Assembly: GCA_047519465.1 (NCBI GenBank)
Contig: JAPVTA010000227.1
Span: 5,687 to 69,686, forward strand
DNA: 64,000 nucleotides
Source of the DNA: Thermodesulfobacteriota bacterium
GTDB lineage: Bacteria > Desulfobacterota > BSN033 > UBA1163
Direction of reading: 5' to 3'
A model generated the notes under the pieces. The model worked only from the letters and a program-made list of their open reading frames with translations. It did not search any database and had not been told where the DNA came from. Positions 7,309-29,262 of this stretch are shown here, in pieces (the stretch's first letter is position 1; every line of letters starts with the position of its first letter). Position numbers and translations under genes: made by a program.

Positions 7309-7539
7309 AATTTTGCCCCTTTCGCGAAACTCAAAATTTCTGTCTCCGGCTGCCCTCGACAAGCAGGTCAATTTAATTTTTTTGAGCCCCTAATTAGCAT
7401 GTTTAAAAAACTATCATCAACTTAAGGTGTTGTCAACGGTATTGGCCGAGAGCTTCACAATAAAAATATTTTTATTTCGTACAGAATGAGGTATAATGAC
7501 CCCGAGGCAGCTATGAGACAGCCACAAGAGATTTCAGGG

Positions 7540-8241: not shown

Positions 8242-8299
8242 TCAAACTAGAAATCCGAATATCGGGCGAAGCGTTCGTCTCGGACAAATCTGAAAAAAA

Positions 8300-8460
8300 A
8301 TTTGGTGGTTATCGGGATATCAGGTTATCAGGTAGTGGATATCAGGACATCCGGGCATCAGGGTTAAGAATTTTTTGTCTCCTGTCCTGCTCTCCTGATC
8401 CTTGGTATCCTGCATCCTGATTTCCTGGTACCCTGATGACCTCCACGTGCATTTCGGATT
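8300..8460. repeat. Long imperfect hairpin built from ATCAGG repeats (left arm) and CCTGAT repeats (right arm); probable bidirectional terminator between convergent ccdA and lptG
   Basis: Left arm 'GGATATCAGGTTATCAGGTAGTGGATATCAGGACATCCGGGCATCAGGG'. Right arm 'CCTGATCCTTGGTATCCTGCATCCTGATTTCCTGGTACCCTGATGACC'. Confidence 0.4.
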
Positions 8461-8470
8461 TTCCCGGATA

Positions 8471-9565
8471 TCATTGTCTAATGCTCAACAACGTTAGAAT
8501 TCCAGCCAGCCCAAAAAGGACCGTAGGGATCCAACAAGCAAGAAAAGGGGAGAGAACCCCCGATTTTCCGAAGGAAACAAAGACATAAAAAATGACGCCG
8601 TAGGCAAAGCCGATCATCACGCTGCTCCCTATACTCAAGGCTACCCCGCCGGACCGGCTGGTTTTCAACGCAAAGGGGATACCGATCAGGACCATGATCA
8701 GGTTTAAGAGAGGCGTAGAAAGCTTGGAATAAAGATCAACAAGATATCGGGTTGCATCGTAGCCTGAGGCTTGGATCTTCTGGATGTAGGTCCAGAGTTC
8801 TCCATAACTCATCTCTTCGGAGTTTCGGCCGATTCTTCGCAAGGACTCCCAGTCCTCCCCCAAATTGAATTCCGTTTTGTCAAAAGGAGTCACCTGGGTG
8901 GAGCCGTCCTCTCGAAACTCGCGTATGGTTCCGTCATAGAACCACCATCCGCCTTTCACCCATTTGACCTGGGGGGCATCAACGCGTTTGACACATCGAA
9001 AGTGGTCATCAAATTCATAAAGGGTGAAACCGCTCAGGACCTTGCTGTATGGGTCGAGCAGTTGGATGTTCAAGATGCGGTTCTCGCTGCGATACCATAT
9101 TTTATAATTCTTAAAAAAAATGGCCGGCTTTTCTTTTCGAACCCGAACATCCAGGAGATATCGGGTTTTTTGGTAGGTGACAGGAACGAGGTATTCGTTC
9201 CCCAGGAAGGAAAAGAAACTGATGATCAGAGCAATGATAAGTAATGGGAACGTAATCCGGTAAAGGCTGACGCCCCCTGCTTTCATGGCTGTGATCTCAC
9301 TATTTCGGGAGAAGCTGCTGAGAGTGAGAAGGGTCGCCAGTAGGATCGCGTAAGGAAGGGTCCATTGGAAAATGACCTCCGGGATCTTGTATAGGAGATA
9401 GACAAAGATCAAGTGGAATGGAGCGTTATACTGGCTGAAGAGGTTCATTTTTTGGAAAAACAGAACGACGACATAAATGAGGACCAGGCTGCTCAGACTC
9501 AAGCCAAATATCTTCAGAAACTCGCGGACGACATAGCGATGGAGTGTCCTATAATGATCAAACAT
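8471..9565 (-). CDS. lptG: LPS export ABC permease, YjgP/YjgQ family (LptG-like)
   Basis: Six-TM YjgP/YjgQ topology with a periplasmic beta-jellyroll insert. Second of two tandem paralogues; assignment of LptF vs LptG is by gene order only. Confidence 0.65.
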   Translation of the reverse strand: MFDHYRTLHRYVVREFLKIFGLSLSSLVLIYVVVLFFQKMNLFSQYNAPFHLIFVYLLYKIPEVIFQWTLPYAILLATLLTLSSFSRNSEITAMKAGGVSLYRITFPLLIIALIISFFSFLGNEYLVPVTYQKTRYLLDVRVRKEKPAIFFKNYKIWYRSENRILNIQLLDPYSKVLSGFTLYEFDDHFRCVKRVDAPQVKWVKGGWWFYDGTIREFREDGSTQVTPFDKTEFNLGEDWESLRRIGRNSEEMSYGELWTYIQKIQASGYDATRYLVDLYSKLSTPLLNLIMVLIGIPFALKTSRSGGVALSIGSSVMIGFAYGVIFYVFVSFGKSGVLSPFLACWIPTVLFGLAGILTLLSIRQ

Positions 9566-10739
9566 CGTTAGAAAACTTTCTCCATTTTTTCTGCAACAAA
9601 TCGAGCCCTTCGATCACCCAAACAGCCGGCCTGAAGGGCGACTCATTCGCCGCCTTGATCAGGAGGTAGATACCCAGCCCCCCGAATATAAACGTAGGGG
9701 ACCAACCTGCCAGGAGCGCGGGCACCGCCCTTCTGACAGCGAGCATTTCGAAGGCAATGAGGGAAATATAGTAAGCCAACAAGATGAGAATACTGAAAAC
9801 AAACCCATACGACCTTCCGGAACGCCGGGGTTGAATTCCCAGTGGTACTCCAATGAGACCGAAAACGATACAAGCAAAGGGAATGGCACGCCGTTTGTGG
9901 AGTTCCACCTCTTGAGTAGTAGTATCCTCCCCTTGCGCCTTCATCTTTTCTATCTTTTTCTTAATCTCATCGATCGACATCTCATGTTCCTTAAACTTCC
10001 TTTCAATGTCAGCGATGTTCTTCCCAAATTCGATTTTTAGATCGTAGGCGTCAAATTGCATCCATTGATACGCCTTTGTCCGGGGTTCAAACCGATGGAT
10101 ATTTCCGTTGAGCAGCTTCAATACCACTCCTTGGGACGAGGGATTAGTGATGAGAAAACCTTCTTGAGCAAAGATGGTATTGACGTTCTCCTTGTCTCTT
10201 TCATCGTAAATTAAAATGCCCTCCATTTTTTTCCCTTGAATGGGAACTTTGTCCACATAGACCACGAGGCCCTTGAAACTATCGTTGAAAATGCGCTCCT
10301 TGACTTCAACGTCCGGCTTAGATTGTGCGATAAACGAGAGCGTCGATACGAAGCCACGGTTGCCCCATGGGAGGCCATAAAAGACCAAAAAACTCGTAAT
10401 AAGATAGGCACTAACGGAAAAAATCGCGATCGGCATATAGAGTTGATAGAGACTTATTCCGGAAGCTTTGAAGGCAGTGACTTCGCTATCTCCTGACAGC
10501 CGGCCAAGGGTGAGGAGGATTCCGAGAAGGACGGCTGTGGGGATAGTGAAGGTGAGAAAAGAAGGCGAGATGAACAGGAGGAGCTTTAGGATGACCGTGA
10601 CATTTCCACCCCTATTGATAATCAATTCGATCAGCTTGAAGATCTTATCCATCAGGAGGATAATCGTGAAGGTCATCAGGCCTATGAAAAAAATGGGGAG
10701 AATTTCCTTCCAGACGTAAAGATAAAGGGTTTTTTTCAT
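9558..10739 (-). CDS. lptF: LPS export ABC permease, YjgP/YjgQ family (LptF-like)
   Basis: 'MKKTLYLYVWKEILPIFFIGLMTFTIILL' is a typical LptF/G N-terminus. Overlaps the downstream paralogue by 8 nt. Confidence 0.65.
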   Translation of the reverse strand: MKKTLYLYVWKEILPIFFIGLMTFTIILLMDKIFKLIELIINRGGNVTVILKLLLFISPSFLTFTIPTAVLLGILLTLGRLSGDSEVTAFKASGISLYQLYMPIAIFSVSAYLITSFLVFYGLPWGNRGFVSTLSFIAQSKPDVEVKERIFNDSFKGLVVYVDKVPIQGKKMEGILIYDERDKENVNTIFAQEGFLITNPSSQGVVLKLLNGNIHRFEPRTKAYQWMQFDAYDLKIEFGKNIADIERKFKEHEMSIDEIKKKIEKMKAQGEDTTTQEVELHKRRAIPFACIVFGLIGVPLGIQPRRSGRSYGFVFSILILLAYYISLIAFEMLAVRRAVPALLAGWSPTFIFGGLGIYLLIKAANESPFRPAVWVIEGLDLLQKKWRKFSNDV

Positions 10740-10885
10740 AGAAATTTTGTCACGCGGCACACTTGCTTGCTGGCAGAAAGGACGCGACCATGTTTTCATG
10801 TATTCTACGGGACGGATGGTAGGTTGTCAAGGAAGGTATTGAAAAGCTTGACAAATTATCGTGAATGGATTAGAAATGATTAGAT

Positions 10886-10946
<61 letters not shown>

Positions 10947-10962
<16 letters not shown>

Positions 10963-12071
10963 AACACATCAAGGGGTTGCGAACCGGCAGCCCCTTTCTC
11001 ATTTCCGGAACTGTCCAAAAAGTGTCCATCCCAGAAGGAAAGAAAGGCCGAACCGTCGCTTCGCGTCAGATTTGGAATGAATTTCGCGTACCGCTTAAAG
11101 AGCATCTCCGTCGAAGCGTGCCCCATCATCTGAGCCACCCAGTTCGGATTCTCACCCGATGAAAGCATGAGCGTTGCAAAAGTGTGACGGATCTGATACA
11201 TCGTCCGATCTCTCAGGCCGGCTTTCTTCAAGGTAGGGTACCACACCCTGTTTCTCAGGTTGTCGTTGTCCAAAGGTGTGGCGTTCTTTGTCACGAAGAC
11301 ATATTCTCCCAAAAAGAAGGTCTTTGCCTTTTGATCGAGAAGGACTTTTTTGACGGGAGGAAGCATGTCGATCTCCCGGTAGCTCGACTCGGTCTTGGGG
11401 CTTGATTCGATCCCGTGGACACGGCCTTCGCGGACGCTGATCTTTCCTAAGATGAGGTCGACGTTTTTCCACTTAAGGGCGATCAACTCGTTGGGTCTCA
11501 TTCCAGTTAGAAAAGCTGTGACAAAGTAGTTGAAAGAGTCGCGGTCAACCTTCCTGAGGAACCTCTTGACCTCGTCAAAACTGAGCGGGAAGATCTCCGG
11601 CTTGGGCTCCTTGAGCCTCTTGACGAACTGACAGGGGTTCTCCTTGATTTCCTTTCTCCGGTAGGCCGTTTTGAAGAGGGTTTTGAGAGGAACCATGATG
11701 TTGTTGATCCGTTTGGGGCTGAGATGGCCAAGGGTTGAAATAAAGCGCTCGATGTCTGCCTCCATGATCCTTGAGAGAACCATCTCGCCGAAGTAGGGAT
11801 TGAGGTAACTTCTGAAGATAGAGAGATCATCCCGCAGGCTAGAAGATTTCACACGAAGCTTTCTCTGTTTGAGCCACTCCTCGGCGTGATCCTTGAACCG
11901 GATCTTTCTTTCTTCGAAGATTCCGAGAAACTCGCCCTTGGCCTTCTTGACCTCAAGATCTTTCAAGACCAGAAAAGCAAGCTCCTTCGAGGGGCCGACC
12001 TTTTTTCGTCGCCTCTTTCCGTTGATCCGAAGATCGATAAACCAGTGTCTTCCGTGTTTGAAGATTCCCAT
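10947..12071 (-). CDS. int: Tyrosine site-specific integrase (phage integrase family)
   Basis: Catalytic region 'IRHTFATLMLSSGENPNWVAQMMGHASTEMLFKRYAKF' (HxxR ... Y); N-terminal arm-binding/SAM-like domain. The 3' end overlaps the tRNA/att core. Confidence 0.85.
11012..11030 (+). promoter_or_regulatory. 19-bp motif TGTCCAAAAAGTGTCCATC (candidate recombinase/Xis arm-type site), left copy
   Basis: 18 of 19 bases identical to 33547-33565 (TGTCCATAAAGTGTCCATC), in the same orientation, each just inside an island end. Confidence 0.35.
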
Positions 12072-12189
12072 CTTGGGCTCCTTTCAGCCCGGTGGACTGA
12101 AAGGACACCAGATAGATTCCACCCCGTATTCTCTTGTCAAAGAACAATGATTAAGAATACGGGTACCAGGAATCCATCTGAAAGTCAAG

Positions 12190-12414
12190 TTACAAATTGG
12201 CGGACGGCTTTCTACTTGGACGTCCTTCAAAGGAGAATCGCTTTAACCACGCTTCGATTGATGAGGGTCGAAAGCGAATGCAGCGACCCAGCTTTAGAAA
12301 TGGGATGCGCCGCTCGTGGACCCACTTTCTTATGGTCGATTTCTTGACTCCGATAAGATCGCTTAATCCAGGGACGTTGAGAAGTTTTTCTGCTGGTGAT
12401 GGTTCAGTTTTCAT
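12190..12414 (-). CDS. AlpA/excisionase-family HTH DNA-binding protein
   Basis: 74 aa with 'LIGVKKSTIRKWVHERRIPFLKLGRCIRF' (AlpA/Xis-type winged HTH), directly upstream of and co-directional with int. Confidence 0.7.
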   Translation of the reverse strand: MKTEPSPAEKLLNVPGLSDLIGVKKSTIRKWVHERRIPFLKLGRCIRFRPSSIEAWLKRFSFEGRPSRKPSANL

Positions 12415-12494
12415 CTTGACTCCCTCGGTTTCTTTGATTATGTAAGATCATACTCCTGGGGGATAATTTTTGGGAAGGAGAGTAGGAAGCTAGG

Positions 12495-13364
12495 ATGGCA
12501 AAAAACTATGGGGAGAAAATGGCTATTTCCGGTGGGCTTATTGTGACAGAAGAGAGGTCGGTGGAAACACTCTTATCTCTGGGAGAGGAAGCTTTCCTTA
12601 TTAGACTGACCATGTCTCCTTATCTCTTTGAGTTTGAGAAAGTCAAAGAAAGGGTGAAAGAGATCAGCGACGACTGGAAAAGGAGGATTGAATTAAAGAA
12701 ATCGAGGAAAAGTTCCTGGGAAAACGTCTTATACCTTGTTCATTTGTTTCCACGGTCATTGGATCTTCGTGAATTTGGCTGGCTCAAGGAGAAGTATTTC
12801 AACATTCTGATGAGAAGACAATGGGACAGTGAATTGGATAAATCTTACTGGGAGACTCTCGAAAAGGTAAGGAAAGATTTTACCCCTACTAAGCCCAAGA
12901 CTCCAGAGAAGAAACTGTTGATAGCAAGAAAGTTCGAATATTACCATAATGCGTGGGGGAGGGGAGAAATATCCAAGAGATCCAGAGAGCTTTTGGAACT
13001 TTATCATTCCTCTGGTACGGAAGAAGAGATTCTGAAGACTCAGTTTTTAAGGAAAATAAAGATTTCACGGGAAATTATGGAGCGGGAATTGGGGAGACTG
13101 GATAGGATATGTGGTGAAGAGATTAGAGATGAGCAGGATTACCTATTCCTGCCGATAATCATCCAAAATGAACTAAGTCTTATCGAAGATAAGAGTGAGA
13201 GGGAACAAGGCCAAAAATTCTGGATCAAGATATGGAAGCCGATATCCAAGAAAGCAGGCAAGCTTAAGCCAGCCTTCATTATGGAGGTGGTCAAGGAGAC
13301 AGGGCTGAGCGAGGAAACAATAAGAAAACTACTTAGAAAAGCAAAGAAAGAACCGATATACTGA
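12495..13364 (+). CDS. Hypothetical Lys/Glu-rich protein with C-terminal HTH-like segment (possible island regulator/replication initiator)
   Basis: No recognisable catalytic motif. C-terminus 'ETGLSEETIRKLLRKAKK' resembles a DNA-binding helix-turn-helix. Followed by an iteron-like/AT-rich region. Confidence 0.35.
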   Translation: MAKNYGEKMAISGGLIVTEERSVETLLSLGEEAFLIRLTMSPYLFEFEKVKERVKEISDDWKRRIELKKSRKSSWENVLYLVHLFPRSLDLREFGWLKEKYFNILMRRQWDSELDKSYWETLEKVRKDFTPTKPKTPEKKLLIARKFEYYHNAWGRGEISKRSRELLELYHSSGTEEEILKTQFLRKIKISREIMERELGRLDRICGEEIRDEQDYLFLPIIIQNELSLIEDKSEREQGQKFWIKIWKPISKKAGKLKPAFIMEVVKETGLSEETIRKLLRKAKKEPIY

Positions 13365-13962
13365 TCAAAACAATGGATGCGTTTGAGTGTTTCCTGTGAC
13401 TTTTGATCCTCGGATATTAGCCAAAACATGTAAAAGGGTCTTCTCCCGTTTCTTTTTCTCTCGGGTAAGTATGATGTTCATCTAATCATTTAATCAAATG
13501 TATGGAGAGGTGGTTGAAAAGATGGAAAATTGAAGAAAATGCATGGAGAAATGAGAAGATTTCCTTGATTCTTCTTATGGATGTATTCAAGATCATCATT
13601 AGAATCTTCTAAATCCTTTAAACAGAATGTCAAGGGTCCTTCTCTTCATAAAGACAAGGCTTCTTAAGGGCATGGTAAGACCCTTTAAAAGATATGGAAC
13701 CTTCAAAGGCCATTTGACAACCTTTCAAGAAGGGATTGAATGGTTTTCTTGACCCCCAAGACCATGTTTTTTCATCACCTTACTTTAAGAAGGTGAAGGT
13801 TACCTCAATACATGCTCCATATTAAGTCCACATGTGTACATGTAAACATCAATGAGTGGTGGAATAAGCAAAAGATTGTCCTCGGTGTTCTTTAGAGATA
13901 TGCCTAATCCCCCGTAAGCACAGCCTCAGGCAAAGGCTTAAGTAAAAGCAAGAGCTTAAACA

Positions 13963-14033
13963 AGCCCTTGAGAAGTCCTTGAAAAGCTCTTGAGAAATCC
14001 TTGAAAAGTCTTTGAGAAGCCCTTAAGAACCTT
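13963..14033. repeat. About six tandem 11-12-bp repeats (consensus CTTGARAAGYC)
   Basis: 'CCCTTGAGAAGT CCTTGAAAAGCT CTTGAGAAATC CTTGAAAAGTC TTTGAGAAGCC CTTAAGAACC' read directly. Lies inside a ~900-bp AT-rich non-coding region. Confidence 0.5.
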
Positions 14034-14109
14034 TTAAAGAGTATTTGTTATCGATTGAATCAAGAGAACTGATTAATCCTCATGACAATCCAAGCAATCT
14101 CCTCATAAA

Positions 14110-14138
14110 TCCACAATAAAATGTTACTTTATTGTGGA
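14110..14138. promoter_or_regulatory. Perfect 11-bp-stem palindrome TCCACAATAAA-ATGTTAC-TTTATTGTGGA
   Basis: Exact inverted repeat with a 7-nt loop, 160 bp upstream of the helicase gene. No clear T-tract, so it is more operator-like than terminator-like. Confidence 0.45.
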
Positions 14139-14299
14139 TTTGAGCTTGCTTTCTATTGATAGAAGCCTTCTCCACCATTTTGCCTAAGAAATGGGCAGAT
14201 TTAACTTTCTAAAATTAATCGAAAAATACAAAGGTAATTGTAAAAGAAGTGACACCGGTTTAGAATTTTATATCTCCTTTAACAAGAAAAAGGTAAAAA

Positions 14300-16465
14300 A
14301 TGTCCGTCATTCACGGTCTTCTCGAAAAGATTTCTTTCCGTAACGAAGAAAATGACTTTGTGGTGGCAAAACTTCGAGAAAAAGAGAAGAAGGATCTGAC
14401 CACCATTGTCGGTAATCTTTCCGGCATCAACCCCGGTGAATCCCTTAAACTGACAGGTCAATGGATACACAATAAGAGATTCGGTGAGCAATTCCAGGTC
14501 GAGAGCTTCGAAGTCACGGTACCGGCTACCCTCTATGGGATTCAGAAATATCTTGCCTCCGGATTGATTCAAGGCATTGGCCCGATCATGTCAGAGAGGA
14601 TTGTCGAAAAGTTCGGGCTTCATACCTTGCAGGTGATCGAAAAGAAACCTGAAAGGCTATCCGAGGTGGAAGGCATCGGTCCTAAACGGATCTCCATGAT
14701 CAGAAAAGCCTGGGTGGAGCAGAAAGAGATCAAAGAGATCATGATCTTTCTGCAGGGCCATGGAGTAGGCGCTGCCTATTCTGCCAAGATCTACAAACAA
14801 TACGGAGATCAGTCGATTGAAATGGTCAAAGAGAATCCTTATCGTTTAGCCAACGACATATACGGGATTGGTTTCGTCACTGCAGACAAGATCGCTCAGA
14901 ATCTTGGAATCGATCGCAATTCCCTGATCCGGGCCAAGGTAGGTCTCACCTATGTCCTGAATCGGCTGACCGAAGATGGCCATGTTTATTATCCCGAAAC
15001 TCGATTGATTCACAAGGCAAGGGAGATCCTCCATGTGGATGAAGAAATCATCCTCCTGACCGTAAAGGAGCTATGCAAAGAGAAGGAGCTCTTTCTGGAA
15101 GACCTCGATCTTGAGGGTGATCTCAGGGCCGCCTATCTTGCCCCCTTCTATGTGGCAGAGACGGGGGTGGCTCAGAGATTAATCCATCTGAAGGAATCTC
15201 CTTCAAGCATCCGGCCCATCCATCCGGAAAAGGCGATCGAATGGGTGCAGCAGAGGCTGAACATCAAACTTGCCGAAAGACAGGAAGAGGCAATTCTTCT
15301 GGCCGCCACTTCAAAGGTGTTGATTATCACTGGCGGCCCTGGAACCGGAAAGACAACGATCATCACAGCCATATTAAGAATCTTCCAGCAATTAAAGCTG
15401 AAGATCCTTCTCGCCGCTCCAACGGGAAGGGCAGCCAAGAGAATGAATGAGGCCACGGGCTGGGAGGCAAAGACCATTCATCGCCTCCTCGAATACTCTC
15501 CCCATAAGGGTGATTTCAAGAAAGACCAGGAAGATCCTCTTGAGGCGGATGTGGTCATCATCGATGAGGCCTCCATGGTCGACACCCTCTTAATGTACCA
15601 TCTCCTGAAAGCCATTCCTTCCCATGCCCACCTGATCCTGGTAGGAGACGTCGATCAACTCCCATCGGTCGGTCCTGGAAATGTCCTGAAGGATATCATC
15701 CGATCAGAAAAGTTTACCGTAGTGAGGCTCTCCGAGATCTTTCGCCAGGCCCAGGAGAGTATGATCGTAGTCAACGCACACAAAGTCAATAAAGGTGAGA
15801 TCCCCGTTCTAAAGGAGATTGACCAACCCGAAAAAACCGACTTTCAATTCATCCAGGAAGAAGATCCGGAGAAGATCCTTCAAAATATCCTGGACCTCTG
15901 CAGCGAGAAGATACCCAGGCAATTCAAGTTTCATCCATTCAGGGAGATCCAGGTCCTGACACCCATGCACAAGGGAACCATTGGTGTCGCCAATCTCAAC
16001 ATCGAGTTACAGAAGAGACTGAACCCCGGTCAGCCGGGCATCACCCACGGAGCCTGGAATTTCAGATCAGGGGATAAGGTGATGCAGATCGTTAACAATT
16101 ATGATAAGGATGTCTTTAACGGGGATATCGGAAGGATCTCAAAGATCGATCCGGAGGAGAGAGAGGTAGTCATCGAATTCGATGGGAGACTGGTCCCTTA
16201 TGACTATTCTGATCTCGATGAAGTTGTGCTGGCCTATGCCATATCCGTCCATAAATCCCAGGGGAGCGAGTACCCGGTCGTGATTCTTCCGGTGGTCACC
16301 CAGCACTATATGCTTCTCCAGAGAAACCTGATCTACACGGGAATCACCCGAGCAAAGAAACTGGTCGTCCTGATCGGAACGAAGAAGGCCCTGGCCATCG
16401 CCATCGGGAATAACAAACCCCAACGAAGGTACACGCTTCTCTCAGAGAGGCTGGCCGCGTCATGA
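14300..16465 (+). CDS. RecD2-like SF1B ATP-dependent DNA helicase (RecD/TraA family) with N-terminal HhH domain
   Basis: Walker A 'GGPGTGKTT', 'LLAAPTGRAAKRM', Walker B 'VVIIDEASMVD', 'LVGDVDQLPSVGPGNVL', C-terminal 'YAISVHKSQGSEYPVVILP' and HhH 'GIGPKRISMI'; 721 aa. Confidence 0.85.
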   Translation: MSVIHGLLEKISFRNEENDFVVAKLREKEKKDLTTIVGNLSGINPGESLKLTGQWIHNKRFGEQFQVESFEVTVPATLYGIQKYLASGLIQGIGPIMSERIVEKFGLHTLQVIEKKPERLSEVEGIGPKRISMIRKAWVEQKEIKEIMIFLQGHGVGAAYSAKIYKQYGDQSIEMVKENPYRLANDIYGIGFVTADKIAQNLGIDRNSLIRAKVGLTYVLNRLTEDGHVYYPETRLIHKAREILHVDEEIILLTVKELCKEKELFLEDLDLEGDLRAAYLAPFYVAETGVAQRLIHLKESPSSIRPIHPEKAIEWVQQRLNIKLAERQEEAILLAATSKVLIITGGPGTGKTTIITAILRIFQQLKLKILLAAPTGRAAKRMNEATGWEAKTIHRLLEYSPHKGDFKKDQEDPLEADVVIIDEASMVDTLLMYHLLKAIPSHAHLILVGDVDQLPSVGPGNVLKDIIRSEKFTVVRLSEIFRQAQESMIVVNAHKVNKGEIPVLKEIDQPEKTDFQFIQEEDPEKILQNILDLCSEKIPRQFKFHPFREIQVLTPMHKGTIGVANLNIELQKRLNPGQPGITHGAWNFRSGDKVMQIVNNYDKDVFNGDIGRISKIDPEEREVVIEFDGRLVPYDYSDLDEVVLAYAISVHKSQGSEYPVVILPVVTQHYMLLQRNLIYTGITRAKKLVVLIGTKKALAIAIGNNKPQRRYTLLSERLAAS

Positions 16466-17370
16466 CTGAGCTGAAGAACGAATTCTCCTGGTCGAAATCC
16501 AGGGATGAGCTGTTTAAGACCTGCCCCAGGCAGTACTGGTTTGCCTATTATGGCTACTGGAACGGATGGCTTGAGAACGCTCCAGAGAGAAGCCGGCAGA
16601 TCTATGTTCTGAAGAACCTCAAGAACAGGCATATGTGGGTGGGGGAAAGGGTCCATGAATGCATTCAAAGATCCCTTAATAATATCCGAAGAGGGATCAA
16701 GGTCCTTTCAGTAGATGAAATTGTGTCCATTACTCTCGACCAAATGAGAGCGGAGTTTCGTTCTTCAAAGTCGAAGAATTATTGGAAGAATCCCAAATCG
16801 TGTGCCTTGTTTGAGCATGAATATGAGGTGGAAGTGAGTGATGAGGAATGGAAAGAGGCTGTGAGTAATGTGGAGACCTGTCTAAAAAATTTCTACGCCT
16901 CGGATATTTATGATGGTTTAAAGTCCCATCGTAAGGAGGGGTGGCTTGAAGTGGAAGAATTCTCTTCCTTTTATCTGGATCATATAAAAATCAATTTAGT
17001 CATCGACTGCGCCATAAAAGAGGGCGAGGGTGTCTATATCTACGATTGGAAGACAGGAAAAAGCCTCTCAGAAGACCTCTCCATCCAATTAGGCTGTTAT
17101 GCCCTTTACGCTATGGAGAAATGGAATCTTTCTCCTGAATCGCTGAGCATTATTGAATATAACCTCTCCATTGATAAGTCCAACTGGTTTTCAGTGAGCC
17201 AGGAAGAAATGAAAGGCATCAAGGGTTACATCAACGGAAGCATCAAAGACATGCAGTCCCTTCTCATCGATGCCTCGAATAATCTCCCCATGGAAGAAGA
17301 CCGGTTCAGTAAGATAGAAGATGAACACATCATCTCCAGATGTAACTATAAAAAAGTCTGCAGAAAATAA
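16462..17370 (+). CDS. PD-(D/E)XK nuclease, Cas4/RecB-like family
   Basis: 'VIDCAIKEGEGVYIYDWKTGK' (D..E..hhDhK core) and 'QLGCYALY' (RecB-family QxxxY motif). Cysteines near both termini ('TCPRQYW', 'CNYKKVC'). Start overlaps the helicase stop (ATGA). Confidence 0.65.
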   Translation: MTELKNEFSWSKSRDELFKTCPRQYWFAYYGYWNGWLENAPERSRQIYVLKNLKNRHMWVGERVHECIQRSLNNIRRGIKVLSVDEIVSITLDQMRAEFRSSKSKNYWKNPKSCALFEHEYEVEVSDEEWKEAVSNVETCLKNFYASDIYDGLKSHRKEGWLEVEEFSSFYLDHIKINLVIDCAIKEGEGVYIYDWKTGKSLSEDLSIQLGCYALYAMEKWNLSPESLSIIEYNLSIDKSNWFSVSQEEMKGIKGYINGSIKDMQSLLIDASNNLPMEEDRFSKIEDEHIISRCNYKKVCRK

Positions 17371-17549
17371 AACCCAATAGTCCTATCTACGGACGAATTC
17401 TCCGCGAAAGAATCCAATCCGTCATGTTTAGAACATTTTTGGTCAATGCTTGACCAGCCAAATTTCTCTGCCGATAAAAAACCTTTTAAATCAAAAGGTT
17501 ATAAACAGCCCCTTCTGGCACAACAAATGCTTGGTATTGTCAACATGAT

Positions 17550-18329
17550 CTATTTCTGATATAGTGAGGCAAAATCCGGTGGGGGATTCAGATATTGAAA
17601 ACTTGTCGGATGAAACCTCACCCATTGATCCTTGAAGATCTGGGCTGCTTTGAATCCAGCCGAAATCATGGCCTCTAAAGGGAGAAGGGTCTTAAGGAAA
17701 GCCGCAAAGGCTATCTTCCTCAGGGCATGGGAATCCCGTATCCTTTCCCAGACCTGATGCTCCTCTTCGGTATCAGAAAGGAGGTAACCCAGAAGAGCCA
17801 GTTGGCTGGAACCCAGTCCATTCTTGGCGAGCCAGAGTATGACATCTTGATCTTTGATGGCCACTGAGAGGAGGTAGACACATTGCTGGAGAAGAGGGAG
17901 ATCCAGGCTATGGAGACGTCCAACCTCTCGAAGTCTATTTGAGAAACGGAAGGTGTAGAACTCTGGAGCACCGTGATGAAGTGCGTGTCCGGTCTCATGG
18001 TGTATTACGGCTTGGACGATTCTCCCATCGACTCCCATCAATCTTTCTTGACAGATGTGGATCCTTGGATAGCCCATCCATGCATCATGGGTAGCCAAAA
18101 AGTCTGTTTCTTCTCCCGTAACAATGCCGAGATTTTTCTTTTCTCTCTGATAGAAGTCCTGATATTTCTCCATCGTTTTCCAGATCGATACGGACAGATA
18201 AGGAGGAGAAGAAGGTGTTTCCTCTATTTCCAGAACCTCGTTCACCCACGTCCTGACCTGGGTCAAGAAGCCCTCGTCTACCTCCTCGTGGGGTACCATT
18301 TGAATTTGTGTGCCCATTCGACAACTCAT
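17550..18329 (-). CDS. Hypothetical protein with HExxH-type motif ('VIHHETGHALHHG'); putative metal-dependent hydrolase
   Basis: His-rich HExxH-like segment; no other recognisable family signature. Confidence 0.35.
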   Translation of the reverse strand: MSCRMGTQIQMVPHEEVDEGFLTQVRTWVNEVLEIEETPSSPPYLSVSIWKTMEKYQDFYQREKKNLGIVTGEETDFLATHDAWMGYPRIHICQERLMGVDGRIVQAVIHHETGHALHHGAPEFYTFRFSNRLREVGRLHSLDLPLLQQCVYLLSVAIKDQDVILWLAKNGLGSSQLALLGYLLSDTEEEHQVWERIRDSHALRKIAFAAFLKTLLPLEAMISAGFKAAQIFKDQWVRFHPTSFQYLNPPPDFASLYQK

Positions 18330-18400: not shown

Positions 18401-19534
18401 TCAATTGATATCATGATGCGCTATCCAGCTGTCGGCTTCCCTGTTTGTCCCCTCAAGCCAGAACCTCTCGATGGTCTCCCTTACCTCTGCAAACCTGCTC
18501 AGGCTCTTAACCACCGAATGAAGCGAATCTTTTTTCCGTAAAGGCGCGGATTTTTGTTCAATCAGCTCCCGTATTTTTTCGACGGCGTGTAATCCAATGG
18601 ACAGTCCCAGCTCTCGGAAGGCGAGACGGTAACCAGCAGGGAGCTTCAAAGAATTTTCTTTCGAAAAGGAATTTAAACCGATCAGGGAAGACTCCGATAA
18701 CGTCTCCAGCAGGCCGGTTTGTTCAAGATTTCCGCTGACAATCAATTGAGCCACCCTGCAGGCATCAAACAAAAGACCGCCGATACCGAGAGGGTCATCT
18801 GTGGCCCAGATGATTCCTTGGCAAATATTGGCCATGTCGAGAATCTCTGCACGGAGATCGTTCCCCATTGATTTTTTCGGGTCTTTTGCTGCAGTCGCCC
18901 GAAGTTCGTTGTAAGTAACAAATCCGTCGATGGGGTCATGTTGCCCCATGGACACCACGAGAGGACGGGAAAGGTCTATACTCATTTTCCAATACATACG
19001 CTTCGGACCACCGTAGGACGAAGCATAGATAAAGCTGGCATGGGCAGTTTTTGCAAGCTCTATCGCCCACGTATTGTACTTTAAATCGCCGGTGACGCCA
19101 CCTACACGGTTAAGAGCATGCATCCACTTTGTCAAATAATGGTAGTACTGCCCATCCCGATCCCACTCCAAACGTTCATCAAAAGGATCGCTGGGTCCAC
19201 GTTCTTGCAATTGCTTGCCTATCCTCAACCCCCCTTTGGTGGGATGTAGCCTGCCGTCCTCCTCATCGAGGCCGCTGATCCAGCCGGTCCGTGAGTCGTC
19301 TTTGCGGTGGTGGCCGAGTGTGTCGTGAACTTGATCAACGAGCTTCAGTGCCAGATCCTTGAATTCTTCGTCCCCGGTCTCCTGATAAAGGCCGAGAAAG
19401 TTGCAGACTGCGAATGCGTCGGTCCATAGGTAGCGCCGGGGTGCAGCGCTTGCTGGTGAGAGTCCGGTTTGTTTGGCAAATCGCTTCATGATTTCCCGGA
19501 CAGTGGGCTGAGATTCATTTTGTTTTACTGGCAT
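18401..19534 (-). CDS. Hypothetical protein (unknown function), probably co-transcribed with the HExxH protein
   Basis: Codon-consistent long ORF; GGAGG RBS precedes Met at 19534. No motif confidently recognised. Confidence 0.35.
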   Translation of the reverse strand: MPVKQNESQPTVREIMKRFAKQTGLSPASAAPRRYLWTDAFAVCNFLGLYQETGDEEFKDLALKLVDQVHDTLGHHRKDDSRTGWISGLDEEDGRLHPTKGGLRIGKQLQERGPSDPFDERLEWDRDGQYYHYLTKWMHALNRVGGVTGDLKYNTWAIELAKTAHASFIYASSYGGPKRMYWKMSIDLSRPLVVSMGQHDPIDGFVTYNELRATAAKDPKKSMGNDLRAEILDMANICQGIIWATDDPLGIGGLLFDACRVAQLIVSGNLEQTGLLETLSESSLIGLNSFSKENSLKLPAGYRLAFRELGLSIGLHAVEKIRELIEQKSAPLRKKDSLHSVVKSLSRFAEVRETIERFWLEGTNREADSWIAHHDIN

Positions 19535-20378
19535 AACGCTGGTGTACCTCCAAGCCTGTTGCCATAACGCAGTGAAGGTTGTAGTGCGGCACTCCGAGCC
19601 CCCGCGCAACCTCCCTAAAGCTTATCCCCAGGCAGGGACCACATCCCCGCTGAGGATTTAGAAGAAGCACCTGTTATTGTTCCGGGTCAAGTCGCCAAGC
19701 ATCATTATTAACCCATAACTACTTCAAAAAAAGGGAAGAATCAAGGAGAGAAATAGGGGATAAGGTGTTTTCTGATTTAAGCAAGCAGCGAAGGAAGCAG
19801 GGTTGATGCTTAGGGACAGTTACATCGTGGTTACACCGCCTCTAAAAGTAAAGGAAGGTCAACCATTTAAAGAGGCGCAGGGGATATCTAGTCCCTTGTA
19901 CTGCGCCAGACGACCCTCCGCTAACCTCTTCCTTCTTATAATCCAGAATCGAACAATTTTGAGAAGCATGCTTGCTAACAATTAACAATGAGCTTAAGAC
20001 TTCTGCTCTTTCGTCCCTTTTGATATGTCCTACATATCGTAACCTTCAAAGAGGTGCGTACAGTGGCAAGATATTGAGCCCTGCCCACTATTTCAGAGGC
20101 GCCCTTCCCAACGATTTACCTCGATGATTCGGAGTCTCAGATTCTATCCCCTGATTCCTTCTATGCTCACCCGGATTACCCGATGGATTCCTATGTGAAC
20201 TGATCTTTGGTGGATAAGGGGTTGGTTTGTCTGCAGGAAGGGGCAAAAAAACCTTTTTATCGACAAGTGAGTATGGATATCCTGTCTTGTGTCATACTAA
20301 TCCCGCTCCGAAATCTCTTTGTCCCGGTCCCCACAGGATGTCCTGAGAAAGCACCTAATATCTTGCGATTTCTTCTTC

Positions 20379-20474
20379 TTGACATACAACTCCCTTGTTT
20401 CTATAGTCGATCCATCCTGAAGCGGCTTCTTATCAGTTTTTTTCCTTGACATACAACGGGGGGGTTCCTATACT
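20379..20474 (+). promoter_or_regulatory. Two tandem near-consensus sigma70 promoters (TTGACA-17 bp-TATAGT and TTGACA-17 bp-TATACT)
   Basis: -35 at 20379-20384 with -10 at 20402-20407; -35 at 20446-20451 with -10 at 20469-20474. The second spacer contains a G7 run. They lie upstream of the lipoprotein gene. Confidence 0.5.
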
Positions 20475-20517
20475 AAAAACGCAATTAGTGACAAATTTTT
20501 TTAAGGAAGGGGATAAT

Positions 20518-21075
20518 ATGAAATTAAGGGTATCCTTTATTGTCGCATTTTTAATCGCCTGCCCCATCCTTCTCACATCTTGCGCGTCGGGGACGGCGTA
20601 TCAAAAGGCCGATGCGCCCGCAACGAAGGCGGTGATATACGTATACCGCCCATCGCGTTTGCTCGGCGCTGCCCTGTCATATTCGCTGTGGGATGTCACG
20701 AATGCGATCGTGACGAAGAAAGTCTCCATCGTACCCAACGATGCCTTCGGCTATAACCCGGCAAAAGATACGCGCATCGACCAATTCAGAGAAGGCATGA
20801 AGTACAGCAAAAAGCTCGCGCGGCTAGTCAACGGGAGTTATTACGCCTATACCGTAGACCCGGGTACCTACTACTTCATTGTGGAGAATACTTCTGGCAT
20901 CGGCAAAGGATGGGGGGTCACCGATGCGGTCACCAAAGTCGAGGCGGAGGCCGGCAAGCGGTATTTTTTCTACTCCTGGGTTGGAGGCGGCGGTCGGGCT
21001 TATATGGAGACCAGGACTGTGGAGAAGGGTGAAAAGGAGATAACCGGGTGCAAACTAGTAGTCGAAGAGAAATAA
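20518..21075 (+). CDS. Lipoprotein of unknown function
   Basis: 'MKLRVSFIVAFLIACPILLTSCASG' is a signal peptide plus lipobox (LLTSC). RBS GGAAGGGGA precedes the start. Confidence 0.55.
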   Translation: MKLRVSFIVAFLIACPILLTSCASGTAYQKADAPATKAVIYVYRPSRLLGAALSYSLWDVTNAIVTKKVSIVPNDAFGYNPAKDTRIDQFREGMKYSKKLARLVNGSYYAYTVDPGTYYFIVENTSGIGKGWGVTDAVTKVEAEAGKRYFFYSWVGGGGRAYMETRTVEKGEKEITGCKLVVEEK

Positions 21076-21764
21076 CCCGGAAACATCAAATAAATTCTTA
21101 TCCCTACGGTAATTGAATTCCTGAGGTCCTGGCGACCTTCGGCCCTGCTTCTTTTGGAACTTAGATTGTTCTTATCTGCTGTATCTCCGTCTGTTTCCCA
21201 ATTACGGAAAAGGTGTTGGTATAGATATCATTTATTGAATTGGGATGCACATTCGCACCAGTAATCGTCGACACCCAGAGTCACTCCAGGCTAACGATTT
21301 GTAGGTAACATTCTTTTCACTCACCGTTTTTTCAGACCCCCGTGTTACTTAACTGGGGGCTTGATTACTTCCTGAAACACTCAAAATCGAAGTTTGCCAT
21401 AGGATTGAAGATTACAATCAGATATCTTCAGTTGGGGTAATGTGCAGATAGTAGCAAGCCATATATGAATTTAAAAATTCGGGGTCCACCCCCAACATAT
21501 TGCGTCTCCTTAAAGCCCTGCGCTGGATTGTTGGCACTTGAGGCTCCCCAAATCCCTACCCAAAATTCCCCTTGACAATCCTCTCATTTTGAACTATTTT
21601 CTAGCCATCGTTTCCCTACAGTTCCTATTTGACCCAACAGCCTAACCTCTAATCTTCTGGAGGGTGTCATGTTAAGGATTCCCAGAAGATGCCAATGCGA
21701 TGATTCCAAGGGAGATTTGTTTTTTCCTGGAGCACTTCTCGTTTTTATGCCTAAGGAGAGGAAG

Positions 21765-22430
21765 ATGAAGAGACTTTTTTTCATGGTAGCGATCCTTTTA
21801 AGTTTTGTGATGATCAATACTACTGCTGAGGCACAGGGTATTTCTAAAGTCCTTCTCATTCCGCGGGAAGGTGAATCGAGTAACCTGGACGTTATGCTTA
21901 AGAAAGAAGTAGGGGTCATGACCGACTTGCTGCAGAAGGCAGGCTTCAAAGTAGTGGTGGCAAATGTTTCCGGTCAACCCATGGAAGGAATCATGAGAAC
22001 GCTTAAGCCCGATTTGAAGTTATCCGAGGTGAAGGTAGATGACTATGTGGGGGTTATACTACCATGCATGGCTGTCGGTCTGTTGCCTGGCCCACCGGTA
22101 TCCCCTGTCGCTGTTTCCATCGTTAAGCAAGCTGTAGAGAGAGGAAAACCAGTGGCGGCTCCGCTTGGTTCCGTTTACATCTTAGCTGAAGCCGGGGCTT
22201 TAAAGGGCAGGCGTTATGCCTTTGCGGATGATCCGCTTATTGAACTTCCCGGTATTAGGAAGAAGGATTTGAGATTTGAAGGAGCCATCTATAGCGGCTT
22301 GGGTGTTGTCCGGGATGGAAGAATCATCACTTCGGGAGTTTGCCCTGCGACGGAAGGATGGTTGGGAAGGCCGGATTGCACTCCTGAACTCACCAGGGCA
22401 TTTATCGCGGAGCTTGGCCGAAAAAAGTGA
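21765..22430 (+). CDS. Secreted DJ-1/PfpI-like (class I glutamine amidotransferase-like fold) protein
   Basis: Signal peptide 'MKRLFFMVAILLSFVMINTTAEAQG'; 'VGVILPCMAVGL' nucleophile-elbow-like segment. Weak assignment. Confidence 0.35.
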   Translation: MKRLFFMVAILLSFVMINTTAEAQGISKVLLIPREGESSNLDVMLKKEVGVMTDLLQKAGFKVVVANVSGQPMEGIMRTLKPDLKLSEVKVDDYVGVILPCMAVGLLPGPPVSPVAVSIVKQAVERGKPVAAPLGSVYILAEAGALKGRRYAFADDPLIELPGIRKKDLRFEGAIYSGLGVVRDGRIITSGVCPATEGWLGRPDCTPELTRAFIAELGRKK

Positions 22431-22491
22431 GAATCAAGAGCATCCAATCCAAACCAAGATTTTTTGAGACAATTATGTCCTCGTTCCCTTT

Positions 22492-24783
22492 ATGGAACAT
22501 TCAGGAGACGATCACATGACCCCAGAGGAATTTAAACGCAAGCTCACCGCCATTCTGAGTGCAGATGTCAAAGGTTACAGCCACCTCATGGGGGAAGATG
22601 AGGAAACCACTCTCCGGACGCTGAATGCCTACAGGGAGGTGATGGGGAGCCTCATCCAGCAACACCGGGGTCGAGTCGTCGACACTGCAGGAGATAGCGT
22701 ATTGGCGGAGTTTGCCAGCGTGGTGGATGCGGTTCAGTGCGCCGTGGAGATTCAGCAGGTGCTGAGGGCGAAGAACGCCGTGGTGCCTGAGAGCCGCAGG
22801 ATGGAGTTTCGGATCGGGATCAATCTTGGAGATGTGATTGAGGAGGGAGATACGATTTACGGAGATGGAGTGAACATTGCGGCCCGACTCGAAGGCTTGG
22901 CGGAGGCAGGCGGGATCTGCATCTCCGAGACTGCCTATCAACAGATTGAGAACAAGCTACCCCTCCGGTATGACTACCTTGGTGAGCACGAGGTGAAGAA
23001 CATTGCCAAGCCGGTGCGCGTTTACCGTGCGCGAATAGAGCCGGAGGCTGCTCCTTCCAAATTGGGTAAGGAGAAAAAGCCTGTCGGGAAACCGTTATCC
23101 AGGGCTGTGTTGGGTATAATAGCCATCGTTGTGATAGCCGGGGCAGTAATCCTTTATCAGTTTGTCCTCCGTTCCTCTCCATCTAAGACTGAGGTAGCCT
23201 CCAAGGAGAAGATGGCTTTCCCTTTGCCCGACAAACCCTCCATTGCCGTGCTTCCATTTGTAAACATGAGCGACGATGCCAAGCAGGAATATTTCAGCGA
23301 CGGAATTACTGAGGACCTGATAACGGACCTCTCCAAGGTCTCCGGTGTCGTGGTGATTGCTCGCAACTCGACCTTCACTTACAAGGGAAAGCCCGTAAAG
23401 GTCAAGCAGGTTGCTGAAGAGCTCGGCGTCCGTTACGTTCTCGAAGGGAGTGTACGCAGGGCCGGTGATGAAGTTCGCATCAATGCCCAGCTCGTCGATG
23501 CTCTGACCGGTCATCACCTATGGGCAGAACGATATGACGGCAAAATAGATAAGATTTTTTCCTTGCAGGATCAAATCACCAAGAAGATTGTTTCTGCCCT
23601 ATCGGTGAAGCTGATCGGGAGTGAAAAGGAACTGGTCGTCCAAAAGGGAACGAATAATGCGGCGGCTTACGATGAATTTCTGGGAGGATGGGGACACTAT
23701 CTCCGGTTCACCCCGGAGGATTTCTCGAAGGCAGTAATTTCCTTTAAAAAGGCCATCGAGCTGGACCCAAACTATGGGCGGGCTCATGCCGCTCTGGCTT
23801 TGGTTTACTGGACCGGTAGTACACAACCCGCATTGCTTCGGGGACTGGAGATCGTTTTCGAGGAGGCTCGTTTGCGGTCCCGTGAATACTTGCAGAAGGC
23901 TATGAAGCAGCCTACATCCATTGCTTACAATGTTTCCTCGCAGATGTATCTTTACGGCCGTCAGCATAAAGAGGCGATTTCCGAACTGGAACGGGCCCTC
24001 TCCATGGATCCCAATGATCTTTCCTGCATTCAATCCATGGGTTTGACCTTGAGCATGGCCGGCAGGCCGAAGGAGGCGATTGAATATATCAATAGAGGAA
24101 TGCGGTTAGACCCACAAAACCCTTCCAGATATTTAGCTCTACTCGGGATGGCCCATTTTTGCATGGGGGAATTACAGGAGGCTGCGAGTTTGAGCGAAAA
24201 GGCATTGCGACTGAATCCGGAAAATGTGGGAATGGGAGTCCAAGTTGCGGCATTCTACGGGCTTATGGGTCGTGACCAGGAAGCCCGTGAGACGCTTGCA
24301 AATGTCAGAAAAAAGTTGCGAATTTTTCCCCTGGATGTTCAAATGTGGAGCTATTACTTCAGGGACCGCGCAGTTGCAGATCGGTATGCGAAGGGCCTTC
24401 TCAAGGCAGGGGTGTCGGGCCAACCATCCGGATATTTACCCGCGTTCAAAGGAAACCAGCTTACCGGAGAAGAAATCAGGACTCTACTCTTCGGTTCGAC
24501 AATCACCGGAATTCGTTTTATTAGGGGTATCAATGGTACGCGGTGGTGGATTGATTGGAAAAAAAATGGAGAATGCATTTGGCATGGGGTAATTACTTCT
24601 GATTCTGATCGTGGAAACAGCCGGATTGAAGGCGATATGATCTGCACTCAGTATCAAAAGAACTGGTGGGGACTCGAAGGTTGTGCGACTGTTTTCAGAA
24701 ATCCCTCAGGCACGCCCGAAACTAAAGACGAGTATTTCTTTGCGCATGACATCGGATTTCAGACATTCTCGCCGGTGCACTGA
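22492..24783 (+). CDS. Class III adenylate/guanylate cyclase domain protein with transmembrane segment and C-terminal TPR repeats
   Basis: Cyclase homology domain 'LTAILSADVKGYSHLM ... GDSVLAEF ... RIGINLGDVIEEGDTIYGDGVNIAARLE'. TM helix 'VLGIIAIVVIAGAVILY'. TPR-like repeats in the C-terminal half. Confidence 0.8.
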   Translation: MEHSGDDHMTPEEFKRKLTAILSADVKGYSHLMGEDEETTLRTLNAYREVMGSLIQQHRGRVVDTAGDSVLAEFASVVDAVQCAVEIQQVLRAKNAVVPESRRMEFRIGINLGDVIEEGDTIYGDGVNIAARLEGLAEAGGICISETAYQQIENKLPLRYDYLGEHEVKNIAKPVRVYRARIEPEAAPSKLGKEKKPVGKPLSRAVLGIIAIVVIAGAVILYQFVLRSSPSKTEVASKEKMAFPLPDKPSIAVLPFVNMSDDAKQEYFSDGITEDLITDLSKVSGVVVIARNSTFTYKGKPVKVKQVAEELGVRYVLEGSVRRAGDEVRINAQLVDALTGHHLWAERYDGKIDKIFSLQDQITKKIVSALSVKLIGSEKELVVQKGTNNAAAYDEFLGGWGHYLRFTPEDFSKAVISFKKAIELDPNYGRAHAALALVYWTGSTQPALLRGLEIVFEEARLRSREYLQKAMKQPTSIAYNVSSQMYLYGRQHKEAISELERALSMDPNDLSCIQSMGLTLSMAGRPKEAIEYINRGMRLDPQNPSRYLALLGMAHFCMGELQEAASLSEKALRLNPENVGMGVQVAAFYGLMGRDQEARETLANVRKKLRIFPLDVQMWSYYFRDRAVADRYAKGLLKAGVSGQPSGYLPAFKGNQLTGEEIRTLLFGSTITGIRFIRGINGTRWWIDWKKNGECIWHGVITSDSDRGNSRIEGDMICTQYQKNWWGLEGCATVFRNPSGTPETKDEYFFAHDIGFQTFSPVH

Positions 24784-25424: not shown

Positions 25425-25461
25425 TTGACAAATTAGTTTACTTTTGGTAAACGAAGTTTAC
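25425..25461 (+). promoter_or_regulatory. Putative promoter (-35 TTGACA) overlapping palindromic operator GTTTAC-N5-GTAAAC plus a third GTTTAC half-site
   Basis: Read directly upstream of the XRE-cupin regulator start at 25467. Confidence 0.35.
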
Positions 25462-25466
25462 ACATC

Positions 25467-26021: not shown

Positions 26022-26073
26022 GAGACCTGTGTACGGAAATGGGAGAATCAACTTTAAAAAAGGAGGTGCAGTC

Positions 26074-27294: not shown

Positions 27295-27384
27295 AAGGTT
27301 GCGCTCGTTGAATAAATTCTAACTCTACCTGATTCCCCCAACTGTTAGGGAGAATAACGGGTTAGGAACGGAAAAGAGTCTATT

Positions 27385-28263: not shown

Positions 28264-28268
28264 AAGGG

Positions 28269-29213: not shown

Positions 29214-29262
29214 CGGAAATAAGAGGAACTTTGTTGCTATTGAGAGGGAACGTTCGCGGACA

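Follow-up and report, generated by a model that had tools for sequence, protein, structure and literature searches.

The window analysed here, a stretch of 64,000 nucleotides from a Thermodesulfobacteriota contig, carries a gene for the helicase RecD2 whose end overlaps the start of a second gene, coding for a stand-alone Cas4-like nuclease, and the two appear to form a genuine operon that is co-transcribed and translationally coupled. We favour, with moderate confidence, the reading that their products are the subunits of a lineage-specific 5'-3' helicase and single-stranded DNA (ssDNA) nuclease with a role in the repair of DNA ends and flaps or in replication. If so, the pair does not constitute a dedicated anti-phage system, nor does the helicase serve to replicate the genomic island in which the operon lies. 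In its favour stand the preserved overlap of the genes, the conserved leader in front of them, the housekeeping context of the operon in relatives and the near absence of the nuclease family from viral contigs. Judging by their families, RecD2 would load onto a 5' single-stranded tail, translocate in the 5'-3' direction and unwind the duplex, and the co-produced nuclease would thread the freed single strand through an iron-stapled channel and cut it. Together they would make up a split machine, like Dna2 or like RecD plus a RecB nuclease, suited to end resection, removal of 5' flaps and processing of forks.

The helicase and the nuclease

By its sequence, the 721-aa protein is a standard, equivalog-level RecD2 rather than a divergent defence helicase. 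It scores 948 bits against the RecD2 equivalog model TIGR01448 (cutoff 500), covering model positions 1-713, and its Pfam domains (OB_YrrC PF23139, HHH_RecD2 PF14490, AAA_19/AAA_30 PF13245/PF13604, SH3_13 PF18335 and UvrD_C_2 PF13538) are laid out as in RecD2, with N-terminal OB and HHH domains, two RecA-like domains, an SH3 insert and a C-terminal UvrD_C_2 domain. The top match in the PDB is RecD2 of Deinococcus radiodurans (3e1s, E 6e-76), with which, as with YrrC of Bacillus subtilis, it shares the OB-HHH-helicase-SH3-C-terminal architecture and all superfamily 1B (SF1B) motifs. From this family membership we infer 5'-3' ATP-dependent unwinding. What sets the window recD2 apart is its translational coupling to a nuclease gene, a trait of one clade; the characterised RecD2 proteins are, to our knowledge, described as acting alone.

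The 302-aa protein appears to be a Cas4-family PD-(D/E)XK nuclease, closest in sequence and in fold to ACE1, an enzyme associated with Argonaute. It matches PF12705 with 45.8 bits (gathering cutoff 22, E 1e-11) and contains the sequences GERVHE (H65), VID182, IYD195-W-K197 and Q209xxxY213. In an alignment of 40 relatives with 31-89% identity, residues H65, D182, D195, K197, Q209 and Y213 were invariant. The AlphaFold 2 model (pLDDT 94, pTM 0.91) found ACE1 (9iab, 9iac) as its best Foldseek match, with template modelling (TM) scores of 0.58-0.65, then the nuclease domains of Dna2 and AdnAB, and then RecE, Cas4 and AddAB; in a sequence-profile search the nearest solved structures were again ACE1 9iab/9iac. 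ACE1 and ACE2 thus provide the best matches on both counts and have the D-DxK site and the iron-staple layout in common with the window nuclease. The latter differs from them in having a helicase partner and no adjacent prokaryotic Argonaute (pAgo), in lacking one cluster cysteine and in an identity of only about 16% in the structural alignment with ACE1.

A preliminary description of the same DNA had listed all SF1B motifs in the helicase, an ATGA overlap between the two genes and the RecB/Cas4 hallmarks of the nuclease. Motifs I to VI were all located (Table 1), and the overlap is there as described, with the TGA stop of recD2 and the ATG start of the nuclease gene sharing ATGA at 16462-16465. 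In the nuclease, the D..DxK core and QxxxY hold good, but the terminal cysteines do so in part: of the four canonical iron-sulphur (Fe-S) cysteines, which follow the pattern C-x(~270)-C-x2-C-x5-C in the family alignment (40 sequences), the window nuclease has three, C21, C294 and C300 (C294-x5-C300), and the cysteine of C-x2-C that is conserved in at least 90% of the family is replaced by Ile291. In the Thermodesulfobacteriota branch of the nuclease (L001-L031; L numbers designate the loci compared) this cysteine is changed to Ser, Ile or Thr nearly throughout and kept only in L006 and L021. All catalytic residues are retained where it has been lost. A link between this loss and the acquisition of a RecD2 neighbour was considered and rejected, as the loss is a general trait of the wider clade, found in linked and unlinked genes alike.

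ACE1 cuts ssDNA endonucleolytically; it has a 4Fe-4S cluster and a narrow channel that threads single strands, and it does not unwind double-stranded DNA (PMC12094033). The family to which the window nuclease belongs is large: an exhaustive search among 50%-identity cluster representatives gave 2113 clusters with relatives at E<=1e-3 and 325 at E<=1e-30, nearly all of them stand-alone proteins of about 300 aa. Only eight relatives, all distant and none with RecD2, were found in viral contigs. A CRISPR-associated role finds no counterpart in the 64-kb window, which holds no CRISPR array, and the neighbouring genes are not cas genes. Likewise, no Argonaute is co-encoded in the same operon, as it is in APACE systems, and no Piwi/pAgo domain was detected next to the nuclease, whose neighbours are RecD2 and two short proteins without a Pfam match at E<=0.01.

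Operon structure and leader

In every relative, the DNA resembling that of the window is limited to one block, 14108-17364, comprising the two genes and a leader of 190 nt. This block is a self-contained unit of 3.26 kb with a conserved leader and candidate promoter region of its own. Purifying selection acts strongly on both genes, with a ratio of nonsynonymous to synonymous divergence (dN/dS) of about 0.08-0.15, and their dN and dS values are similar. The 4-nt overlap and the gene order were kept at every linked locus read, as checked on called gene coordinates in L001, L002, L005, L007, L217-L222 and L224, and on mechanical lists of open reading frames (ORFs) in L009 and L011.

The leader contains a palindrome and a second inverted repeat, both upstream of the candidate recD2 promoter, which look like a protein-binding operator. 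In relatives from unrelated genomic contexts the palindrome arms, AATCCACA and TGTGGA(A/T)T, are kept and the spacer of about 17 nt is variable. The leader belongs to no Rfam family; an Rfam scan of the whole window matched the tRNA alone.

Distribution of the pairing

The extent of the pairing was determined in a scan of GTDB (one genome per species) with a profile made from a 14-sequence nuclease alignment, which gave 516 nuclease relatives. At the best 80 loci, a RecD-like gene adjoined the nuclease in five, where the nuclease shared 79% identity or more with the query; 51 were unlinked, with at least 2.3 kb of upstream sequence present, and 24 were too short to judge. The lineages of these 80 loci include Thermodesulfobacteriota, Planctomycetota, Clostridia, Acidobacteriota, Verrucomicrobiota, Lentisphaerota and SAR324, and the nuclease family is widespread as a stand-alone gene, in at least 10 phyla. 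The conservation of the gene pair, which the preliminary description had put forward as a check, is therefore not general, and linkage does not extend across the range of the rarer component as it would in a two-gene system (five against 51 loci). A nuclease without conserved linkage to the helicase is one of the findings that the preliminary description had said would refute its reading. In the nuclease tree the linked genes make up a single crown clade within Thermodesulfobacteriota, with the unlinked L013, L014, L006 and L075 nested inside it. The comparison shows the RecD2-Cas4-like pairing to be an operon-level innovation of one uncultured Thermodesulfobacteriota clade, and since linkage is restricted to that clade and has been lost within it, coupling is not obligatory. 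The commonest neighbour family of the nuclease was lineage-restricted and occurred at only 13 loci; an example sequence resembles, by eye, a metallo-beta-lactamase-type hydrolase.

These figures could also be understood as an incidental adjacency, in which a Cas4-like repair nuclease gene landed behind recD2 in one lineage, the two proteins work independently and the overlap is a matter of compact packing. Such an explanation would account for the absence of RecD2 at 51 of the 56 informative GTDB loci, for the repeated loss of linkage within the linked clade, for the lack of a nuclease partner across phyla and for locus L223, where a nuclease gene that may be frameshifted stands beside an intact recD2. 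We nevertheless hold it to be unlikely, because the overlap and the gene order survive every relocation (at least six contexts) and the genes move as a unit with one promoter region, because dN and dS are alike in both genes, and because a 5'-3' helicase that makes ssDNA and a nuclease limited to ssDNA are biochemically complementary. The L223 nuclease (10163-11018) is read in two frames with a break near residue 145, the gene being a pseudogene or else the product of an indel error in long reads.

Additional nuclease copies were seen at two loci. L009, whose nuclease is the most similar to that of the window (92% identity), has a second, different PF12705 nuclease of 299 aa (219-1118) 3 kb upstream of recD2, and L013, where the nuclease is without recD2, has a partial extra copy of the nuclease 5' region (7249-7443) just downstream.

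Genomic neighbourhoods of the operon

In the closest relatives, with RecD2 proteins 87-93% identical to that of the window, the genes run in the order FabH, TldD, M23 peptidase, SecA, ArgJ, the block, small unknown genes, Tex and TatAB. This argJ-tex arrangement was found on a 2.2-Mb contig, that of L217, and on more than 20 further contigs, and no integrase is present. The SecA-ArgJ-pair-Tex setting of the closest relatives is a housekeeping neighbourhood. In L217 an IS481 transposase stands between argJ and the block. Elsewhere the block directly follows tRNA-Met with no integrase between them (L127 and L223), and the left flank of L223, DsbD-LptF-LptG-tRNA-Met, is the same as that of the window. 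With its place at argJ-tex or right behind tRNA-Met, the unit is chromosomal in most close relatives. In L007 and L008 a 6-kb island lies between tRNA-Met and its attachment (att) repeat, with the block just outside the repeat. This insertion (1250-7380 in L007) has six ORFs of 89-476 aa with no precomputed Pfam match and no integrase called, and its three largest ORFs had no PADLOC match. L002 and L007 have in common the downstream AFOR and TPR-HisKA genes, for which dS between both loci is 0.51 and 1.12; the dS of the pair, 0.76 and 1.10, is bracketed by these values, therefore indicating vertical co-inheritance.

Several observations weigh against a repair or replication operon of this lineage. 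As seen above, linkage is confined to one clade and lost in the nested L013, L014, L006 and L075, and a clustering of neighbouring ORFs disclosed no nuclease partner conserved across phyla and, outside that clade, no helicase partner. At least six neighbourhoods occur among block copies that are at least 83% identical in DNA, and they do not follow the block phylogeny. Between the window and L007, dS is 0.55-0.79 for the block and saturated for the adjacent LptG, a lower divergence of the block that hints at lateral exchange. The copy in L224 (1-18166; also L225) adjoins transposition genes of the TniA/TniB type and toxin-antitoxin genes: the block comes after two HTH_17 genes, a Mu/TniA-like transposase, TniB and a 168-aa protein, and before HTH_25, SatD, DUF3307 and a protein of the MqsA/SocA_Panacea type. 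Finally, the copy in L009 precedes a type II-like N6-adenine methyltransferase and a HerA-like ATPase. These last two genes and a 458-aa unknown protein make up a defence-like cluster at 8063-12172 of that locus. Such mobile or defence-like neighbours of the block are sporadic and not systematic. Given the unusually frequent change of neighbourhood and the occasional neighbours of this kind, the block may have an accessory role.

A more novel reading has the block as a self-contained, laterally exchanged cassette that hops among integration hot spots of related genomes, namely tRNA-Met, the argJ-tex islet and Tn-like elements, and that encodes an undescribed two-gene system against invading linear DNA or a mobile-element module for counter-defence or recombination, in either case as a bacterial split Dna2. 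To this we assign a low probability. Assembly GCA_040960625.1 holds both L224 and L001, whose pair is more divergent, but this apparent presence of two pairs in a genome was not relied on, because sister assemblies of the series exceed 10,000 contigs and could be whole metagenomes instead of single-genome bins.

The insertion at the tRNA-Met gene

The operon of the window lies in a tRNA-integrated island, recognised by the integrase gene at the 3' end of tRNA-Met, a 64-nt repeat at the far end and an unoccupied site in relatives. The preliminary description had placed the pair between an integrase/AlpA module and the right att repeat. Integrase, AlpA-like gene and insertion are real, but the repeat is not adjacent to the pair: it forms the right end of an insertion of 22.8 kb, 16.3 kb past the nuclease gene. 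Between the integrase module and recD2 no att copy was found by exact, 3-mismatch or short-word BLAST searches, the sole copy being the one at 33708-33771. That the 22.8 kb between the repeats are an insertion follows from the metagenome contigs L122, L191 and L201, which lack them and in which tRNA-Met is fused directly to homologues of window positions 33772-34211, an empty site. A scan of metagenomes for the exact empty-site pattern had no match; 120 metagenome loci were found with the identical 3' part of the tRNA alone, and the empty sites were recognised among them.

The tRNA-Met gene behind LptF-LptG is a strong hot spot of integration. At these 120 metagenome contigs (L089-L208) LptF-LptG is conserved upstream of the tRNA and the downstream DNA is hypervariable, and in about 25 of them a tyrosine integrase 25-85% identical to that of the window is found right behind the tRNA. 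The recurrent module at 10947-14038, that is, integrase, AlpA-like HTH_17 gene, p289 and the 11-nt repeats AAGCCCTTGAG, was also seen in L141, L170, L171 and L204. In L141 the integrase and AlpA genes have been lost, a p289 homologue (76% identity in aa, 82% in nt) occupies the same position, and p289 is joined to the start of the block as in the window. In L137 the same tRNA-Met has a homologue of p402 (72% in nt) at a distance of about 0.8 kb. On account of the p289-block junction without integrase in L141 and of this p402 homologue near the tRNA, the region is a layered mosaic. As to whether the block moves with the integrase, the L141 junction speaks for it, and L127, L223, L007 and the argJ-tex relatives speak against it. 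The block may have come in with the integrase element, or it may have resided next to the tRNA already and been enclosed afterwards.

Besides the RecD2 block and two unknown genes, the insertion carries, at 20446-32941, DUF2846, DJ-1/PfpI, an adenylate/guanylate cyclase fused to TPR repeats, an HTH-cupin regulator, a five-gene ABC transporter of the branched-chain amino-acid (Liv) type and HMG-CoA reductase. No defence genes were found among the cargo of the 22.8-kb insertion, the rest of which is metabolic or regulatory.

It had been suggested as an alternative in the preliminary description that the helicase serves replication of the island from an adjacent ori-like region. In its wider form, with the pair serving replication, excision processing or transfer of the element from the 11-nt repeats, this agrees with the operon following directly on the int-AlpA-p289-repeat module, both in the window and in L141, and with the existence of full-length RecD2-like proteins encoded by phages (phrog_4412, E 3e-174). 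We consider it very improbable, as the operon has a conserved leader and promoter region of its own and is widespread without the module: in most relatives it has no integrase, p289 or repeats, and the 11-nt repeat region is not conserved with the block. Moreover, p289 matches no replication-protein family of Pfam, NCBIfam or PHROGs.

Neither did the defence-cargo context fare well. Under this alternative the pair would be a two-gene module of anti-phage or anti-plasmid defence, or of counter-defence, carried as island cargo to unwind and degrade invading linear DNA. The position of the window pair, inside an att-bounded insertion and beside integrase and AlpA, is what such a module would show, and the p289 junction recurs in L141. 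The varied neighbourhoods of near-identical block copies, the TniA/TniB-like, HTH_17 and MqsA/SocA-type genes of L224, the methyltransferase and HerA-like ATPase of L009 and a block younger than the flanking LptG point in the same direction, and ACE1, the closest characterised relative of the nuclease, works in pAgo immunity. However, the commonest context in the closest relatives is the core SecA-ArgJ...Tex neighbourhood without integrase, of about eight contexts only one has known defence genes beside the pair, and the other cargo in the window is metabolic. The helicase scores as an equivalog-level RecD2, members of the nuclease family mostly stand alone in ordinary contexts across phyla (92 of 115 ACE2 proteins come from genomes without pAgo, PMC12094033), and strong purifying selection leaves no arms-race signature. 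The defence interpretation is poorly supported, and we regard it as quite improbable.

In agreement with the preliminary description, no named defence system was matched. PADLOC recognised the helicase by typeIV_RecD and, in part, by PDC-S68 and PDC-M16A, matches to the generic RecD or helicase core, and the nuclease by Aga_Cas4-like_Nuc (the top match, full length, E 2e-23) and Cas4 only. Among Gabija, Hachiman, Nhi, Mokosh, type IV CRISPR RecD and the PDC candidates, there was no PADLOC system matched by both proteins.

Comparison with known helicase-nuclease systems

The repair or replication reading that we prefer finds its nearest parallel in Dna2 (5eax), where the same logic, a Cas4/RecB-like Fe-S nuclease and an SF1B 5'-3' helicase on one ssDNA strand, is realised, and whose nuclease domain was the next-best fold match after ACE1. 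Dna2 is a single polypeptide with the nuclease at the N-terminus, whereas in the window the functions are divided between two proteins, the helicase is of the RecD2 type and its gene comes first; common descent of Dna2 and the window pair as a unit is unsupported. RecBCD, AddAB and AdnAB also combine SF1 motors with nuclease domains of the RecB family; RecD2 has its closest paralogue in RecD, and the nuclease domains of AdnAB and AddAB are among the fold matches. However, these complexes have large multi-domain subunits, fused nucleases, an SF1A 3'-5' motor and a Chi-recognition module, all of which are absent from the window pair. The nuclease of the latter is a stand-alone protein of 302 aa, and no gene similar to AddA, AddB, RecB or RecC is adjacent.

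Nucleases of the pfam12705 Cas4-like type have been reported with UvrD helicases, as fusions or in operons, or with COG1205 helicases, and were in part judged to act in repair (Hudaiberdiev et al. 2017, PMC5704561). The helicase is in these cases an SF1A UvrD or an SF2 YprA-like protein, as opposed to RecD2 in the window pair. RecD does not occur in the text of PMC5704561, and no description of a RecD2-Cas4 pair was found in the literature searched. Both proteins come from known families, and the new part would be RecD2 as the helicase partner of a Cas4-like nuclease.

If the two proteins work together, they would be a minimal two-subunit 5'-3' helicase-nuclease and a bacterial counterpart of the Dna2 arrangement. 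This could explain the processing of DNA ends and flaps in some lineages and would assign a role to one branch of the solo Cas4-like (ACE2-like) proteins, a very large family that is uncharacterised. The case also calls for caution in the search for defence systems: a helicase-nuclease pair in an integrase-flanked island resembled defence cargo, and the comparative context is that of a core-type operon beside an integration hot spot, occasionally swept in. Overall, the pair resembles a DNA-repair operon next to a hot spot for mobile elements more than it does a new anti-phage system.

Features of the window

The features that were located are collected in Table 1.

Table 1. Genes, repeats and sequence motifs of the RecD2 operon and of the tRNA-Met insertion (window positions, or residues of the helicase where indicated).
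Feature	Position	Strand	Remarks
tRNA-Met	10886-10962	+	ARAGORN, Rfam
Left att copy	10886-10981 (repeat core 10918-10981)	+	tRNA-Met + ~20 nt; repeat alignments
Tyrosine integrase	10947-12071	-	overlaps tRNA 3' end; Phage_integrase and SAM-like N-terminal domains
AlpA-like HTH_17 regulator, candidate excisionase	12190-12414	-	PF12728, E 2e-12
p289	12495-13364	+	289 aa; goes with integrase module; no match in Pfam, NCBIfam, PADLOC, PHROGs
Tandem 11-nt repeats AAGCCCTTGAG, formerly called ori-like	13962-14038		~6-7 copies; outside conserved block
Operon leader, conserved, non-coding	14108-14299	+	homology with relatives begins ~14108 in unrelated contexts
Leader palindrome AATCCACA-N17-TGTGGATT	14110-14146	+	TCCACA-N17-TGTGGA; alignments with relatives, hairpin scan
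Second inverted repeat in leader	14179-14199	+	TTTGCC..GGGCAGA; hairpin scan
Sigma-70-like candidate promoter	14238-14266	+	TTGTAA-17-TAGAAT; promoter scan
recD2	14300-16465	+	721 aa; full-length SF1B 5'-3' helicase RecD2 (predicted)
SF1B motif I	residues 345-352		GGPGTGKT
SF1B motif Ia	residues 372-379		AAPTGRAA
SF1B motif II	residues 420-426		IIDEASM
SF1B motif III	residues 448-460		VGDVDQLPSVGPG
SF1B motif IV	residues 481-483		FRQ
SF1B motif V	residues 650-657		VHKSQGSE
SF1B motif VI	residues 679-686		YTGITRAK
Cas4-family nuclease gene	16462-17370	+	302 aa; PF12705 PD-(D/E)XK, stand-alone, ACE-like (predicted)
p259	17550-18329	-	259 aa; downstream of nuclease; no credible match in Pfam, NCBIfam, PADLOC, PHROGs
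p402	18401-19609	-	402 aa; downstream of nuclease; no match in Pfam, NCBIfam, PHROGs
Right att copy	33708-33771	+	tRNA-Met 3' half + ~20 nt, then hairpin and T8 tract; 61/64 nt identical to 10918-10981

The sole match of p259 was a marginal one to a methyltransferase model (E 0.004). Between the nuclease gene and p259, a sigma-54-type promoter motif, TGGCAC-N5-ATGCT (17516-17531), and about 80 nt after it are conserved in both L010 and L011, and in the latter they stand just 5' of a plus-strand ORF of 271 aa. The window has no convincing plus-strand gene after the motif, the stretch entering the 3' end of a minus-strand ORF, and here it may be a remnant that travelled with the block.

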